In this document: positions 386-4,251 of the stretch, in pieces
How positions within the stretch are numbered: the first letter of the stretch is position 1
How the letters are laid out: each line of letters starts with the position of its first letter
Origin: a virus
DNA: 12,663 bases
Strand: one strand, 5' to 3'
UHGV virus genome: UHGV-0172014
Notes under the pieces: model-generated
Databases searched by the model: none
Seen by the model: the letters and a program-made list of their open reading frames with translations, nothing else
Told to the model about the DNA's origin: nothing
Program-made: the position numbers and the translations under genes

Positions 386-580
386 TTATTCGATAATACC
401 CGCAAACCTATAAATCTTGTGTGATGCCCATTTATTGGGACAGGATTTTATATCAGGATCAGGAAAGTCTGGTCTATATTTCTTACCTGTTCTATGGTTT
501 ATGCTGTTCCAGCGAAGCACTGTTGATATTGAAACACCACAGAAGTCGGCGACCTGTTTAGTTGTCATTAAGTTGTTCAT
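386..580 (-). CDS. Excisionase/AlpA-like small helix-turn-helix DNA-binding protein (64 aa)
   Basis: Internal ATG at 578-580 (minus) preceded by a GGAGGGG Shine-Dalgarno; the longer 138-aa track ORF would overlap the HD gene by about 190 nt. MTTKQVADFCGVSISTVLRW... resembles small Xis/AlpA-type HTH proteins, and the position at the distal end of the leftward operon fits an excisionase. Family call is from memory. Confidence 0.55.
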   Translation of the reverse strand: MNNLMTTKQVADFCGVSISTVLRWNSINHRTGKKYRPDFPDPDIKSCPNKWASHKIYRFAGIIE

Positions 581-614
581 TGCTACCCCTCCAATGGTTG
601 TGCAGTTGAAAGAC

Positions 615-1151
615 TCATGCGCATTTGCGTAACTCCGATAACTCGTTAAAGCGTTCCATAAACATCCCGTAGGCATGGCCTGGCGACTGTGGAATAACTT
701 TGAACATCTCTGTTGCCGGGATACCTTCCAGTACAGGCCAGAAAGAGCCATCATCAAGCCCGAGATCGCGGCGTTCGGTTGCCAGCATGATGAGATCGGC
801 ATATTTCACGGGCGTGCTCATAACCGGGGGTAACCCGTATTTCTCACGGATTACGGCGTCTATTTTTTCTTCCATCCGTTTATAGTCAGGAAGAAGGCGT
901 TTCAGTGGCGCGGGGATGTCCTGACAATACGCTTCTGTTGCATCATGCATTAACGCTTCATAAGCAAATTCCTGTGATACCAGCTGGCTGCAAAGCACCG
1001 CATGTTGGGCAACGCTGTAGAAGTGTGAAAGATGACCAGCAAAGCGACAGATATTTGAAAGGGAAACCGCGATATCGTTAATAACGATGTCATTTTTATT
1101 TATCTTGTCATAATAAAAATGCTTCCCGGAAAAAGTTTTAATAAATGACAT
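615..1151 (-). CDS. HD-domain phosphohydrolase (YfbR-like 5'-deoxynucleotidase family)
   Basis: Start moved to the internal ATG at 1149-1151, which has a GGAG SD 6 nt upstream; the track start at 1214 has none. Conserved H...HD signature (RFAGHLSHF...ALMHDATEAY) typical of HD hydrolases found in phage early regions. Confidence 0.7.
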   Translation of the reverse strand: MSFIKTFSGKHFYYDKINKNDIVINDIAVSLSNICRFAGHLSHFYSVAQHAVLCSQLVSQEFAYEALMHDATEAYCQDIPAPLKRLLPDYKRMEEKIDAVIREKYGLPPVMSTPVKYADLIMLATERRDLGLDDGSFWPVLEGIPATEMFKVIPQSPGHAYGMFMERFNELSELRKCA

Positions 1152-1214: not shown

Positions 1215-1560
1215 CCGGCGATTATTGAGTCAATTACATTTCCATGAATGCCCCCGTAGGGGCGGTTAGTTTCTCCACAAAACAGAGAAGAACACCTGCG
1301 GTGGCAGCCGCCCGGATGGATTGGGTTATGAGCCCGTCGTCCGGTGATGCTCTTCTCTGTTTTGTAAAAAGGACGGTACCAGCCGGAAGCAAGGGTACAA
1401 ACTGGTACCTCCAGGACTACACACAGCATAAAGTTGTGGTGCCGGGTGCCTCCCGGTGCCTGGCGAAGGTTGCACACCAGACGGGTGGGTATCCACAGAA
1501 GGTCGACTGTCAGCCTCAACCTTAACCCGCGTGCGCTGAGCCGCATTCACCACAACGCTA
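1215..1560. other. GC-rich, hairpin-dense noncoding segment (possible structured RNA or decayed remnant)
   Basis: No protein-like ORF in any frame; the overlapping track ORFs are Arg/Pro/Cys/His-rich. Contains a perfect 15-bp inverted repeat (ACAAAACAGAGAAGA 1277-1291 / TCTTCTCTGTTTTGT 1351-1365), and hairpins GCCCC-CGTA-GGGGC (1250-1263), GGTACCAG/CTGGTACC (about 1376-1409) and CCGGG/CCCGG (about 1440-1455). Confidence 0.3.
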
Positions 1561-1630
1561 AGGATTCTCTCTGGTTAAAAATACTTAGCTGTTATGTGCC
1601 TGCTTTTAGCCACATCAGGCGAGGTGGACC

Positions 1631-1690
1631 TGGTTATTCCCCAACAACAAGGATTCGGTTAATCTGGTTATCCCCAACAACGCAAAAGGA
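1631..1690 (+). repeat. Two direct repeats (CTGGTTAT(T)CCCCAACAAC) immediately upstream of the 1697 start codon
   Basis: TGGTTATTCCCCAACAAC at 1631-1648 and TGGTTATCCCCAACAAC at 1666-1682, about 35 bp apart; a third CTGGTTA occurs near 1573. Position suggests a regulator-binding site or 5'-UTR element. Confidence 0.5.
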
Positions 1691-1696
1691 AAAGAA

Positions 1697-2131
1697 ATGT
1701 CCGGTAATATCTACACGCTGTACAAATCCCACTGTGAAAATGTTGGAAAGTATCGGGGCATTGAAATCAGTGGGGTAGTGTCATCAGTCGAAATAAGCAA
1801 AGTGGAATCAAGGGCAACATTACTTACTCTTCTGGACCTTGTCTTACATGAGCACCGGAAGAAATTCGGCACTCCCTATAATCAGTTGAATGGGAAAAAG
1901 GCTCTGGTTCACCTTATTCTGATGAAGCATCACTGGATGCCAAAACAGATTAATGAGATGAAATTTGATGAACTTCTTCTTTCAATTCAGGATGAACTCA
2001 CACTTGATAAAATAAGCGTAACCGCCCAGAAATTTTTAGATTATCGAGACTGGAGATCACAAATTCATCACTTTGATGATTTTGACGAAAATGAATGGGA
2101 TCCTAATTTGTCTGCACAATATCTAAAGTAA
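1697..2131 (+). CDS. Hypothetical protein (144 aa), AT-rich orphan gene opposite to the leftward operon
   Basis: ATG at 1697 with AAAGGA SD; uninterrupted 144 codons; visibly AT-rich relative to flanking phage genes; no family recognised. Confidence 0.6.
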   Translation: MSGNIYTLYKSHCENVGKYRGIEISGVVSSVEISKVESRATLLTLLDLVLHEHRKKFGTPYNQLNGKKALVHLILMKHHWMPKQINEMKFDELLLSIQDELTLDKISVTAQKFLDYRDWRSQIHHFDDFDENEWDPNLSAQYLK

Positions 2132-2309
2132 CATCCTGTGATAAAACCGTGATTTCCTGATCCAGTTTTTTTAAGGAGTCTATTGTTTCCTGTCGATAAG
2201 ACAGCACTTCACGAAGCTGGTTTATAGCTGCCAGCTTCTTTGCCATCCACTCGTAAATTTCCTCATTTGTGTATCCGGGCGCGACGATTTTGGGTTCTGT
2301 TTTGTGCAT
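2103..2309 (-). CDS. Hypothetical small protein (68 aa), first gene of the putative leftward early operon
   Basis: ATG at 2307-2309 (minus) preceded by a strong GAGGAGGTG SD with a 6-nt spacer (track start at 2324 lacks one). The 3' end overlaps the convergent 1697-2131 gene by 29 nt. Not Arg-rich, so not obviously N-like. Confidence 0.55.
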   Translation of the reverse strand: MHKTEPKIVAPGYTNEEIYEWMAKKLAAINQLREVLSYRQETIDSLKKLDQEITVLSQDVTLDIVQTN

Positions 2310-2368
2310 TTCACACCTCCTCAAGTTATCAGTTACTTGTTGATGGGGACCAAATTGTTAAAGAGCTA

Positions 2369-2396
2369 AGCGTCCTGTAGGGCGCTTTTTTGTTGC
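2369..2396 (+). terminator. Rho-independent terminator (plus strand only)
   Basis: Stem AGCGTCC / GGGCGCT (7 bp, one G-U pair), loop TGTA, followed by TTTTTTGTTG. The reverse complement has no U tract after the hairpin, so it should not stop leftward transcripts. Confidence 0.55.
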
Positions 2397-2564
2397 TAAC
2401 GAATCACCCTAGACTTTATATGCCCCAGGCGGCTACTTCGTGGGCGTCCTGCCTGTTCGTTTTTGACATTTACTGACCGCTTACGACACATGCACTATGC
2501 ACCGTGTTGCAACCAGATTTTGTTGTAATCCTGTAGTTGGTCTGGAACAAAAGATAAAATCAAA

Positions 2565-2602
2565 TTGCGAGATATGCAAGTAGTATTTTGCGAGATATGC
2601 AA
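2565..2602. promoter_or_regulatory. OL-like operator pair: two identical 15-mers TTGCGAGATATGCAA (2565-2579 and 2588-2602)
   Basis: Each 15-mer has dyad ends (TTGC...GCAA) and matches the TTGCG-N5-TGCAA motif found in the cI-cro intergenic region; located on the far side of cI from OR, as lambda OL is. Confidence 0.5.
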
Positions 2603-2656: not shown

Positions 2657-3349
2657 TTAATTATGTCTCTTAAGGGTTTGCGACTGACTGATTAAGACCT
2701 TTCCAAAGACCATGAATCGGTGTTCGTTTTCGCTAGTAATTCCCCATTCACGGTAAATCTGGTTATCAGAAATCACCAGCAGTTTGTCAGGAATCATTTG
2801 AAGTCTTTTAACGTATATTTTGTCATCAAAACCAAAGACATATATACCATCACCATCAAACTGATTGATGCTGACATCGACGAAGATGAGATCTCCTGGC
2901 TCAATGGTTGGACACATACTGTCCCCACGAACGTTGATAACTTTGATGTGATTGGCTGGTCGTCCGCCGAACATTGATACAGCATTATCAGTTCTGTATT
3001 CGATGGCATGAATCACATCAATGACATCACCGCCCTGGATAAGGCCATTTCCCGCACTGGCACTGATATCCAGCATTTCAATACGGAACACATCCTTCAC
3101 CTGCGCAACATCCTCATTATTACTGTTTTTATATACAGTATTACTTTTGAGGGCAGAGGTAAAGAGATCAGCAATATCAACACCTAAGCTCTTGGCAATA
3201 TTACTCAGTGTTTGTTCGGTAAATTGTTTCTGCTTACCCGTTTCTAAGCGCGAGATGTTCGCCGCATCTACTCCTATTGCTTCAGCGAGATCGGCGATTT
3301 TCATGTTCTTCGCTTGGCGAAGTTGTCTGACTCGGTTTCCTATGTTCAT
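2657..3349 (-). CDS. cI: CI-type prophage repressor (N-terminal HTH_XRE plus C-terminal S24 LexA-like autopeptidase)
   Basis: N-terminal HTH (RQAKNMKIADLAEAIGVDAANISRLETGKQ) and C-terminal S24 catalytic motifs (VRGDSMCPTIEPGD with Ser; YVKRL with Lys); divergent from a cro-like gene. No SD before the ATG at 3347-3349, consistent with a leaderless mRNA as in lambda cI. Confidence 0.9.
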   Translation of the reverse strand: MNIGNRVRQLRQAKNMKIADLAEAIGVDAANISRLETGKQKQFTEQTLSNIAKSLGVDIADLFTSALKSNTVYKNSNNEDVAQVKDVFRIEMLDISASAGNGLIQGGDVIDVIHAIEYRTDNAVSMFGGRPANHIKVINVRGDSMCPTIEPGDLIFVDVSINQFDGDGIYVFGFDDKIYVKRLQMIPDKLLVISDNQIYREWGITSENEHRFMVFGKVLISQSQTLKRHN

Positions 3350-3446
3350 GCGTTTATTACATTTCTTTATTGCGTGATAAGCAAATCAACTTGCGCAAAA
3401 TACTTGCGTGAAATAACATGCATAACGCGCAATATTTGGAGGATAT
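3350..3446. promoter_or_regulatory. OR-like divergent promoter/operator region between cI and cro
   Basis: Repeated operator-like sites: TTGCGTGATAAGCAA (3370-3384), palindrome TTGCGCAA (3391-3398), TTGCGTG (3404-3410), and on the reverse strand TTGCGCGTTATGCA (3419-3432). A possible rightward promoter is TTGCGC (3391-3396), 17-nt spacer, TAACAT (3414-3419); promoter hexamers are tentative. Confidence 0.6.
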
Positions 3447-3707: not shown

Positions 3708-4251
3708 GCATCACTGGAAAGTAGACAAACAGCCTGAGTGGTACGTGAAAGCTGTCAGAAAAACTATCGCAGCGTTGCCGGGGGGTTACGCTGAAGCTGC
3801 TGACTGGCTGGATGTAACAGAGAACGCATTATTTAACCGCCTTCGTGCCGATGGCGATCAGATTTTCCCGCTGGGATGGGCAATGATTTTGCAACGTGCT
3901 GGTGGAACTCACTTCATTGCTGATGCTGTGGCGCAGTCTGCAAATGGCGTCTTTGTGTCTCTTCCTGACGTCGAGGATGTGGACAACGCCGATATTAACC
4001 AGCGTCTGCTGGAAGTCATTGAACAGATCGGCAGTTATTCAAAACAGATTCGTTCAGCAATCGAAGACGGTGTAGTGGAACCGCATGAGAAGACAGCAAT
4101 TAATGACGAGCTCTACCTCTCAATTTCGAAGCTGCAGGAGCATGCAGCACTGGTCTACAAAATCTTTTGCATTTCAGAAAGTAATGACGCCCGCGAGTGT
4201 GCAGCTCCGGGCGCCGTGGCGTGTCGTGACTGTGGAGAAACTAACGCATGA
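3700..4251 (+). CDS. Early regulatory protein in the CII/YdaT position (183 aa); family uncertain
   Basis: GTG start at 3700 with AGGAGG SD (6-nt spacer), overlapping the cro stop; position immediately after cro matches CII/YdaT-like genes of lambdoid prophages. Functional call is positional and from memory. Confidence 0.55.

Follow-up and report, generated by a model that had tools for sequence, protein, structure and literature searches.

A promoter-less RNA domain, probably of the STnc100/PasD superfamily, in the early-left operon of an Escherichia coli lambdoid prophage

RESULTS

A Structured RNA Domain in the Non-coding Island

The stretch of DNA analyzed here (the window; 12,663 nucleotides (nt) of the UHGV virus genome UHGV-0172014) holds, between the yfdR gene and an ECs1072-family gene, a non-coding island whose central part, positions 1433-1556 on the minus strand, is in all likelihood an RNA of the STnc100/PasD superfamily. 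This domain of ~125 nt, here called type 2, consists of five helices and a pseudoknot and has no promoter of its own, and its homology as well as the covariation of every helix, pseudoknot included, are observed. With less confidence, we favor the reading of the whole island as the untranslated RNA leader of the repressor-controlled pL operon of an SfV/SfII/e14-type lambdoid prophage, with release of a small RNA (sRNA) and transcriptional read-through as its proposed outcomes.

A preliminary description of the island, made from the letters alone, had listed a structured non-coding RNA among several possible readings and had found no RNA class to which it could be matched. When the Rfam covariance models were searched at E-value thresholds (701 nt searched), STnc100 (RF02076) matched positions 1364-1586 of the minus strand below its gathering cut-off (38.4 bits, E 9.3e-7), and the alignment spanned the full length of the model (positions 1-206) and contained the invariant GGUGAAU and CACCGGGAGGCACCCGGCACCA strings. 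tRNA, tmRNA, and all other Rfam families gave no match. The first impression that no class applies therefore has to be revised, because the core is a sub-threshold STnc100/PasD member and the long hairpin downstream of it carries a copy of the initiator-tRNA anticodon arm (see below), and the proposal of a structured non-coding RNA is supported by covariance-model matches on the minus strand, strong covariation, and the absence of codon periodicity. In contigs of species-representative genomes, at least 120 stretches contained the 20-nt core CCGGGAGGCACCCGGCACCA, and among the matches listed nearly all were from Enterobacteriaceae. In an alignment of 48 diverse copies, GGUGAAU and (U/G)CACCGGGAGGCACCCGGCACCA were invariant within variable surrounding sequence, and the window fits the invariant columns. 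A covariance model built from this alignment, whose E-values are rough, gave a single match in the window and retrieved homologues outside the seed from phage P1 (86 bits), the P1-like phage JL22 (91 bits), and e14 (71 bits).

The helices shared by the window and bona fide STnc100 members are maintained by compensatory change. Among 121 distinct sequences, 90.8% of the paired cells could form a pair versus 75.1% in shuffles (0/500), 23 of the 30 pairs of the core domain showed changes on both sides, and the covariation score was 0.400, compared with 0.125 for shuffled sequences and at most 0.105 for slid partners. This alignment was fitted to the model and so leans towards the structure, and the controls and an unfitted alignment agree with it: RNAalifold, run on a MAFFT alignment not fitted to the structure model, recovered P1, P2, and P5, and there P2 of the window subtype is preserved by three CG-to-GC swaps. 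MAFFT and RNAalifold alone gave only these three helices and part of arm A of the three-way junction described below; P3, P4, and the pseudoknot emerged only with the covariance-model alignment and a test in which partners were permuted among sequences. At the base of P2, 116/121 sequences have a U-G pair, which is valid on one strand only.

The five helices of the domain form a closed junction in which P1 (GUGGUG/CACCAC, 1548-1556/1433-1441, with a covarying extension in the window subtype) is followed by an AAU linker, P2 (1528-1545), a short P3, P4 (1475-1482/1458-1465), and the invariant P5 CCGGGAGGCACCCGG (1442-1456), which is joined directly to the 3' strand of P1. Immediately 3' of P3, strand a (1517-1523) pairs with the loop of P4 (a', 1466-1472) in a pseudoknot that nested models do not capture and that reads AAGGUUG:CAACCUU in the window, AAGGCUG:CAGCCUU in phiES15, AGCUGGC:GCCAGCU in a Pantoea prophage, and AGACUGAC:GUCAGUCU at locus L101, with ACUGGU:ACCAGU, AUCAGCA:UGCUGAU, and UUUGAUCG:CGAUCAAA in STnc100 proper. 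With 79 distinct pairs represented, complementarity to the own partner averaged 5.68 versus 3.97 +/- 0.10 for permuted partners (0/2000) on a scoring scheme devised for this analysis, and a non-redundant subset of 39 sequences gave 5.30 versus 3.77 +/- 0.17. The window AAGGUUGA can instead pair locally with UCGACCUU, which is the choice of the minimum-free-energy fold and may represent an alternative fold; the two target strings of AAGGUUG(A) are near-duplicates (1499-1523 versus 1466-1472). By analogy, the order of the helices can be read as acceptor, D, anticodon, variable, and T arms of a tRNA with a long variable arm, and the fold looks more like that of a protein- or ribosome-binding RNA than that of a simple seed-and-terminator sRNA.

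Two Subtypes of the STnc100/PasD Domain

Copies of STnc100 are transcribed in enterohemorrhagic E. coli, where they were seen on Northern blots (PMC5331693), and PasD is an abundant sRNA in Hfq RIL-seq data and a structural homologue of STnc100 (bioRxiv 10.64898/2026.05.13.724894). The window element has in common with both P1, the AAU linker, P2, P4, P5 (CCGGG-AGGCA-CCCGG, then CACCA), a putative terminator downstream, and a location in Enterobacteriaceae prophages. It differs from them in that its P2 is rewritten by compensatory swaps, its P1 is extended, and P0 and H0 stand ahead of it; moreover, type 2 lies in the leader of early-left or ban operons, whereas STnc100/PasD lies in the late Q-lysis region. 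Type 1, that is, STnc100/PasD proper, scores 58-131 bits on RF02076 and thus passes the Rfam cut-off. In 62 of 99 distinct type-1 copies, GUGGUG is preceded at 4-9 nt by a TAnnnT hexamer, in many cases together with a good -35, whereas such a -10 hexamer was found in none of 27 type-2 copies, the window included. The window copy has a terminator-like hairpin and no -10 element and is therefore not an autonomous gene; we regard it as a subfamily of STnc100/PasD that shares the defining fold while scoring below the curated cut-off.

Type 2, which carries GGUGAAUGCGGCUCAGCGC and the covarying helix P0 ahead, also includes copies from e14, ST64B, phiES15, phage P1, Pantoea, Buttiauxella, and Lelliottia that stay below the Rfam cut-off, and only locus L021 reaches 47.8 bits. 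In lambdoid phages type 2 sits in the early-left leader, always between the repressor gene and the first leftward open reading frame (ORF), and phage P1 has it in the C1-controlled ban operon, flanked by genuine tRNA genes and tciA and oriented like ban. Of the copies surveyed, both subtypes taken together, 70/161 (~43%) are followed by a terminator-like hairpin no more than 160 nt past the core, mostly at a distance of 20-45 nt. A third and more divergent version of the domain, with a different P5, was found in mEp460 and Stx2a_1447 (L009 3664-3817, minus strand, and the same region of L010). In these two phages P5 reads CCGG-AGAUCAGCA-CCGG; 6 nt of its loop are complementary to the P2 loop (GCUGAU), hinting at a loop-loop contact.

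Other observations concern RNAs elsewhere in these genomes. Canonical STnc100 occurs in Superficieibacter and Enterobacter as tandem arrays of two or three diverged copies with a spacing of ~220-270 nt (L040 6359-7011; L036, L039, L051, and L077). The early-right region of ST64B (L251 5562-5750) holds isrK beside a C4 antisense RNA, both above their Rfam cut-offs and neither present in the window. Among known prophage sRNAs, svsR was set aside as lying at the 3' end of cI on the strand opposite to the cI coding sequence, and e14 co293 and HnrS differ from the island RNA in position and sequence.

Modules Flanking the Domain

On the minus strand the modules of the leader follow one another in the order H0, P0, domain, single-stranded motif, putative terminator, long hairpin, Shine-Dalgarno (SD)-like motif, small hairpin, and yfdR. 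The hairpin H0 (CCACCUCGCCUGAUGUGG, 1610-1627) forms the 5' edge of the conserved block, and homology to SfII, SfV, and e14 ends at about 1627; H0 is kept, as the variant CCACCGAGCCUGAAGUGG, in the e14, phiES15, Lelliottia, and Buttiauxella prophages, in which the sequence upstream differs. A conserved GGCACAUAACAG (1589-1600) precedes helix P0 (1580-1589/1557-1566), which lies directly 5' of the domain and covaries, reading GCUAAG/CUUAGC in the window, GAUAAGAGU/ACUCUUAUC in ST64B, AUGAAGCGCAUU/AAUGCGCUUCAU in phiES15, and AAGAGCAUU/AAUGCUCUU in phage P1 and Pantoea. The string GCUCUUUCC just upstream of the domain was considered as a boxA and rejected, being one arm of P0.

Between the domain and the terminator lies a single-stranded motif, UGCUGUGUGUAGUCCUGG (1411-1428), which is a candidate seed or protein site. 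It is kept as UGCUGUGUGUAGUC(C/U)UGG in ST64B, phiES15, phiNP, L226, and L101; L139, in which the structured domain is replaced, has a partial and weaker motif, GCUGUGCUGUUACAUUGG, and mEp460 has only its UUGGCGG 3' end. No complementary cis target of the motif was found in the window. The adjoining intrinsic-terminator-like hairpin (1366-1409; stem 1402-1409/1375-1382, ~13 pairs when extended, -18.5 kcal/mol) is GC-rich and is followed by a tract of five U (1366-1370). Its place is constant in ST64B, phiES15, L139, L149, and L226, and its sequence is different. A riboswitch-type attenuator was discarded, given that no conserved alternative pairing joins domain and terminator and that the terminator sequences differ between phages. 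The long hairpin is followed by a conserved SD-like motif, GGAGAAACUAACC (1264-1276), and this by a small hairpin, GCCCCUACGGGGGC (1250-1263), which precedes the first ORF. Among leaders with different first ORFs (YfdP-like and others), the motif is retained and the small hairpin varies in sequence.

All hairpins and repeats of the preliminary description were found within 1-2 nt of the positions given there: the hairpin GCCCCCGTAGGGGC at 1250-1263, GGTACCAG/CTGGTACC at 1375-1382/1402-1409, CCGGG/CCCGG at 1442-1446/1452-1456, and the perfect 15-base pair (bp) inverted repeat 1277-1291/1351-1365, which extends to 25-nt arms (1277-1301/1341-1365) that are 84% complementary as DNA and, with G-U pairs, fully paired as minus-strand RNA. 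The contrast in composition also holds (GC 0.53-0.575 over 1201-1600 versus 0.35-0.44 in the flanking genes), as does the density of structure: the minus strand of 1215-1600 folds at -157.5 kcal/mol versus -124.7 +/- 5.3 kcal/mol for dinucleotide shuffles (z -6.2; 0/100 as stable), and the plus strand has a z of -2.95 versus shuffles.

A Copy of the Initiator-tRNA Anticodon Arm in the Long Hairpin

The long hairpin (1277-1365, minus strand) folds into an outer helix of ~20-25 bp that closes a three-way junction with arm A (1312-1344) and arm B (1298-1311). Arm A carries CGGGCUCAUAACCC (1323-1336), identical in 14/14 nt to the anticodon stem-loop of the E. coli initiator tRNA, which we take to be UCGGGCUCAUAACCCGA; the initiator-tRNA sequence that we assumed is present at 100% identity in 5426/5426 complete E. 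coli genomes, in a median of 4 places per genome. The identity spans the 7-nt loop with its CAU anticodon and the three G-C pairs that are the hallmark of initiator tRNA, and the chance expectation of a given 14-mer in the island is ~4e-6.

The element occurs in three forms: (a) in early-left leaders, as in the window; (b) in Klebsiella phages, directly after tRNA-Arg/Asn genes and between Q and the lysis genes, with an outer stem of 6-7 bp (GGCCUG/CAGGCC) followed by (A/G)CCA; and (c) in phage P1, inside helix P0 just upstream of the domain. The same three-way junction is formed by 59 of 62 distinct sequences, which comprise 25 arm-B hairpins, 11 outer-stem variants, and 9 arm-A variants and show partial covariation; GGG(C/U)UCAU is constant in all 62 variants, but it was part of the search pattern. 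ARAGORN found no tRNA in the window or at the Klebsiella-phage form, the Rfam tRNA model gave no match at E<=10 to any form of the element, and an acceptor stem ending in NCCA was found only in the late-region form of the Klebsiella phages and not in the window copy, which also has no D arm, T arm, or CCA. The element is therefore tRNA-derived or tRNA-mimicking and not a tRNA. An attP site or a remnant of integration into a tRNA gene was dismissed, with int and attL at the other end of the prophage. As a separate observation, the early-left leaders of Stx2a_1447, phiNP, and Buttiauxella prophages have T-arm-like hairpins (GUCCG-UUCGAUU-CGGAC and CUGG-UUCAAUU-CCAG), additional tRNA-like pieces, upstream of the domain (L010 ~3800-3900, minus strand; L226 5740-5820; L253 ~3330-3400, minus strand; L066/L067).

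Two known leader elements resemble the long hairpin in part. The thrS operator, which mimics tRNAThr and sits at the ribosome-binding site, is likewise an anticodon-arm look-alike inside an mRNA leader, but the window element copies the arm of tRNAfMet and not that of tRNAThr. The RNase III hairpins of the lambda N leader and sib share with it a helix of >20 bp, the size that RNase III needs, placed between the leader and the first ORF of the pL operon; in contrast to them, the window helix ends in a three-way junction and not in a simple loop, and its cleavage is predicted.

The Island Lies within the Repressor-controlled Leftward Early Operon

E. coli strain E1 carries, inserted beside yjjG, a prophage that matches the window with 100% identity, and the Shigella phages SfIV, SfII, and SfV and the K-12 element e14 are its close kin; some part of a 601-nt query was matched in 2782/5426 complete E. 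coli genomes. The layout comprises an excisionase-like gene (386-583, minus strand), yfdR, encoding a 5'-deoxynucleotidase with an HD domain (615-1151, minus strand), the ECs1072-family gene (1697-2131, plus strand), a 68-amino acid (aa) ORF (2103-2309, minus strand), and cI (2657-3349, minus strand), followed by cro. The most likely start of yfdR is the ATG at 1151, not position 1214, since it has a GGAG Shine-Dalgarno sequence and is identical to the start called by the PGAP annotation; the non-coding island therefore comprises 1152-1696. In most relatives the first ORF after the leader is YfdP-like, and this prophage and SfII lack two genes, which puts yfdR first.

The upstream control region of the transcription unit of the island (2351-2602, minus strand) contains OL operators, a hairpin, and a boxA. 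Four copies of the operator TTGCGAGATATGCAA mark the OL and OR regions, two of them exact and left of cI (2565-2579 and 2588-2602) and two diverged, between cI and cro (3370-3384 and 3418-3432). From its place relative to these operators and cI, the island lies within the repressor-controlled leftward early operon. The related phages mEp460, Stx2a_1447, ST64B, phiES15, phiNP, and PhiR49_1 also have a long non-coding stretch with the same elements between the repressor gene and the first leftward ORF. A near-perfect rrn-type boxA, AGCUCUUUAACAAUUUG (2351-2367, minus strand), whose core matches in 15/15 positions and which is the sole boxA in the window (chance expectation 0.04), stands right after a hairpin of the pL leader (2368-2387) and ~40 nt before the 68-aa first ORF, and it points to antitermination of the early-left operon by Nus factors, the phage having no recognizable N protein. 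For a promoter of the leader itself, a consensus scan gave none and inspection by eye gave none that is convincing upstream of H0 in five different contexts, though one nearer than pL may exist.

The Annotated Open Reading Frames of the Island Lack a Coding Signature

The island had been described as having no credible ORF, which holds in part: ORFs of 75-148 aa are open and publicly annotated, and none has a coding signature. The annotations include K-12 ymfH (103 aa, minus strand; K-12 locus L003, 2981-3292), a 'frameshifted hypothetical protein' pseudogene called by PGAP in strain E1 (1234-1553), and SfIVp34/35 and SfII_35, and a plus-strand ORF (1244-1525), wholly antisense to the RNA leader, matches phrog_3651 ('unknown function') at E 1e-56. 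Variable sites were counted by codon position, for the island in 43 homologues of 77-99% identity. Variable sites at positions 1/2/3 were 38/38/41 in the YmfH frame, 43/47/48 in the second minus-strand frame, and 43/43/40 in the frame of the plus-strand ORF, against 87/52/159 in yfdR, 3/0/10 in the ECs1072-family gene, and 3/0/9 in the 68-aa ORF, the three neighboring positive controls. Neither a conserved frame nor a codon-position bias was therefore seen in the YmfH and phrog_3651 ORFs, although the control genes showed a clear bias. Indels in the island are of 1, 5, 7, 8, and 20 nt, none a multiple of 3; the YmfH-frame ORF is 24, 47, 75, or 103 aa long depending on the copy; the plus frame is interrupted by an early stop in 5/40 near-identical copies; phiES15 has stops in all six frames within the conserved domain; and the ORFs of the island matched no Pfam family. 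Moreover, the GTG start of YmfH (1551-1553) coincides with the first GUG of helix P1, and its 75-aa version stops (1326-1328) at the UAA of the anticodon-like loop.

It is thus highly improbable that the island is explained by a gene or pseudogene for a protein, be it YmfH (minus strand) or phrog_3651 (plus strand), and phrog_3651 appears to have been built from spurious ORF calls. The suggested remnant of a decayed early gene finds no support either, the translated homology being that of ORFs called on a conserved RNA; such homology does exist and had been named as what would refute an RNA, and without a coding signature the RNA reading stands. With its start and stop inside RNA elements, a clone of the ymfH ORF would therefore express the whole RNA. 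In e14, ymfH is induced along with intE and xisE upon DNA damage, in a way that depends on cleavage of LexA (PMC11228462), and a ymfH clone was reported as a trigger of the retron-Sen2 toxin RcaT (bioRxiv 10.1101/2020.06.22.160242), which may be an RNA effect.

The Direct Repeats Belong to the Plus-strand Gene Cassette

The two direct repeats CTGGTTAT(T)CCCCAACAAC, confirmed at 1630-1649 and 1664-1682 with a period of 34, end 14 nt before the ATG of the ECs1072-family gene on the plus strand. In PhiR49_1 the same repeats stand ahead of an unrelated gene on the plus strand, ending ~13 nt from its start, and they are absent from e14/SfII-type loci. They are thus part of the 5' cassette of plus-strand genes and not of the RNA leader, and the island, first described as one unit, has to be divided accordingly. 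Antitoxin repeats of the ToxI-like type III kind were rejected, there being two copies only and the same repeats standing before the unrelated PhiR49_1 gene. The ECs1072-family protein encoded after them, where a ToxN/AbiEii-type toxin would be expected, had no match in Pfam or PADLOC. The second repeat holds TTATCCCCA, one mismatch away from what we take to be the DnaA box consensus, TTATCCACA.

DISCUSSION

A mechanism in which transcripts from pL both release an sRNA and read through into the operon can be proposed, and we hold it tentatively, at slightly less than even chance. Upon derepression of the prophage, pL transcripts would cross the boxA at 2351-2367. Polymerases not made termination-resistant would stop at the U-tract 1366-1370 and release a structured sRNA of ~190-260 nt, which by analogy with STnc100/PasD might be Hfq-associated and act in trans, with the conserved 1411-1428 motif or a variable loop as its putative seed. 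Polymerases modified by boxA-loaded Nus-factor antitermination would read through the terminator, and RNase III would then probably cut the helix 1277-1365 (>20 bp), so that leader and yfdR-xis mRNA come apart.

Several observations weigh against this interpretation. Rfam returned nothing in the whole window at gathering thresholds, and the 38.4 bits of the STnc100 match are below the cut-off of 47. The pL promoter is ~950 nt upstream of the island, with an antisense gene in between. The terminator has a large loop and five U only, and it is absent from a simple consensus scan because that loop exceeds 8 nt; in addition, the type-2 copies L020, L021, L027, and L048, from other genera, have no terminator and run straight into an ORF, and release of an sRNA is therefore not universal. 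Finally, the folding energies of the individual elements are equal on both strands, which removes thermodynamics as a strand discriminator for single elements, and the strand assignment therefore rests on the models, the U-tract, the U-G pairs, and the direction of the operon.

Beside the protein-gene reading discussed above, other explanations have to be considered. A site acting at the DNA level, be it a recombination hotspot, an origin, or an operator cluster, could draw on the long perfect inverted repeat and on the boundaries of phage recombination modules at 1252, 1413, and 1627, but helices maintained by G-U or U-G pairs, as at the base of P2, are mismatches on the other strand, the pseudoknot and the three-way junction have no DNA rationale, and attP adjoins int elsewhere in the prophage. 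Such a site is very hard to credit, and the recombination site first considered for the island has no support either. Somewhat less remote, and still unlikely, is a cis-acting processive antiterminator comparable to HK022 put, in which the domain would stay on RNA polymerase, in phages without N protein, and let it pass the conserved terminator 1366-1409 and later ones. In several N-less phages the domain does stand directly upstream of a terminator whose position is conserved, and in some genomes directly ahead of ORFs, its invariant 24-nt core is what would be expected of a site bound by a conserved host machine, and, like HK022 put and lambda nut, it is an RNA element ahead of terminators in a repressor-controlled early leader that contains a boxA. 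However, put RNAs, whose action involves the zinc-binding domain of the RNA polymerase beta' subunit, are ~70 nt long, have two stems, and lie immediately after the promoter (PMC9378689), whereas the domain has 125 nt and five helices, lies ~950 nt from OL, and is unlike put and nut in sequence and structure; besides, a separate rrn-type boxA already exists in the pL leader, no conserved alternative pairing with the terminator was seen by sequence inspection, and the type-1 relatives are autonomous, free-standing sRNA genes with their own -10 element and terminator.

On the strength of sequence likeness, the leader might also be a tRNA-mimicking decoy or sensor that binds a PIN toxin of the VapC/MvpT type, MetRS, IF3, or the P site of the 30S subunit and would protect the phage or gate early expression. 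The 14/14-nt identity to tRNAfMet, the G-C pairs and CAU present in all 62 variants, the position of the copy at the tip of a junction with covariation in its other helices, and the second form with an acceptor-like stem and NCCA inside phage tRNA arrays would fit, and the hosts, Shigella, Salmonella, and E. coli, have VapC toxins that, reportedly from work by Winther and Gerdes in 2011, cleave tRNAfMet. Nevertheless, the anticodon stem has 3 bp only before an internal loop, no tRNA model recognizes any form, and the likeness could be the relic of a captured tRNA gene, so that we consider this role doubtful. Equally speculative is the broader possibility that the early leaders of SfV/e14-type phages and of phage P1 are arrays of exapted tRNA look-alikes, composed of the anticodon-arm mimic on its three-way junction and the five-helix STnc100 domain, that would serve as decoys or sensors of host factors recognizing tRNAfMet (VapC/MvpT, the 30S P site, IF3, or MetRS) and not as base-pairing sRNAs. 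If this were true, the RNA would be responsible for phenotypes ascribed to the 'protein' YmfH of K-12, for instance the triggering of the retron-Sen2 toxin. The immunity RNAs C4 of P1/P7 and CI of P4 are comparable in being structured, presumably processed RNAs with tRNA-like features in a phage operon leader, and the type-2 domain of phage P1 lies in the ban operon beside tRNAs and a dicF-like region; the window element differs from them in that the Rfam C4 model gave no match in the window and no complementary target was found in the operon.

Returning to the RNA leader with an STnc100/PasD-type domain, four elements of this account are new with respect to the literature searched: the promoter-less subtype in early operons, phage P1 included, the covarying pseudoknot, the recognition of ymfH and phrog_3651 as RNA, and the initiator-tRNA anticodon-arm junction. 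The STnc100/PasD family is thereby widened from sRNA genes of the late region to promoter-less modules of early operons in two unrelated phage types, and it gains a testable higher-order fold with a junction of five helices, an invariant 24-nt core, and a pseudoknot that covaries. K-12 ymfH, the PHROG family, and many 'hypothetical proteins' of SfV-, Stx-, and P1-type phages appear to be translations of a structured RNA that, whole or in part, is present in about half of the complete E. coli genomes (2782/5426), and the exact copy of the initiator-tRNA anticodon arm in three phage contexts provides a lead on how phages may interfere with tRNA-directed functions of their hosts.

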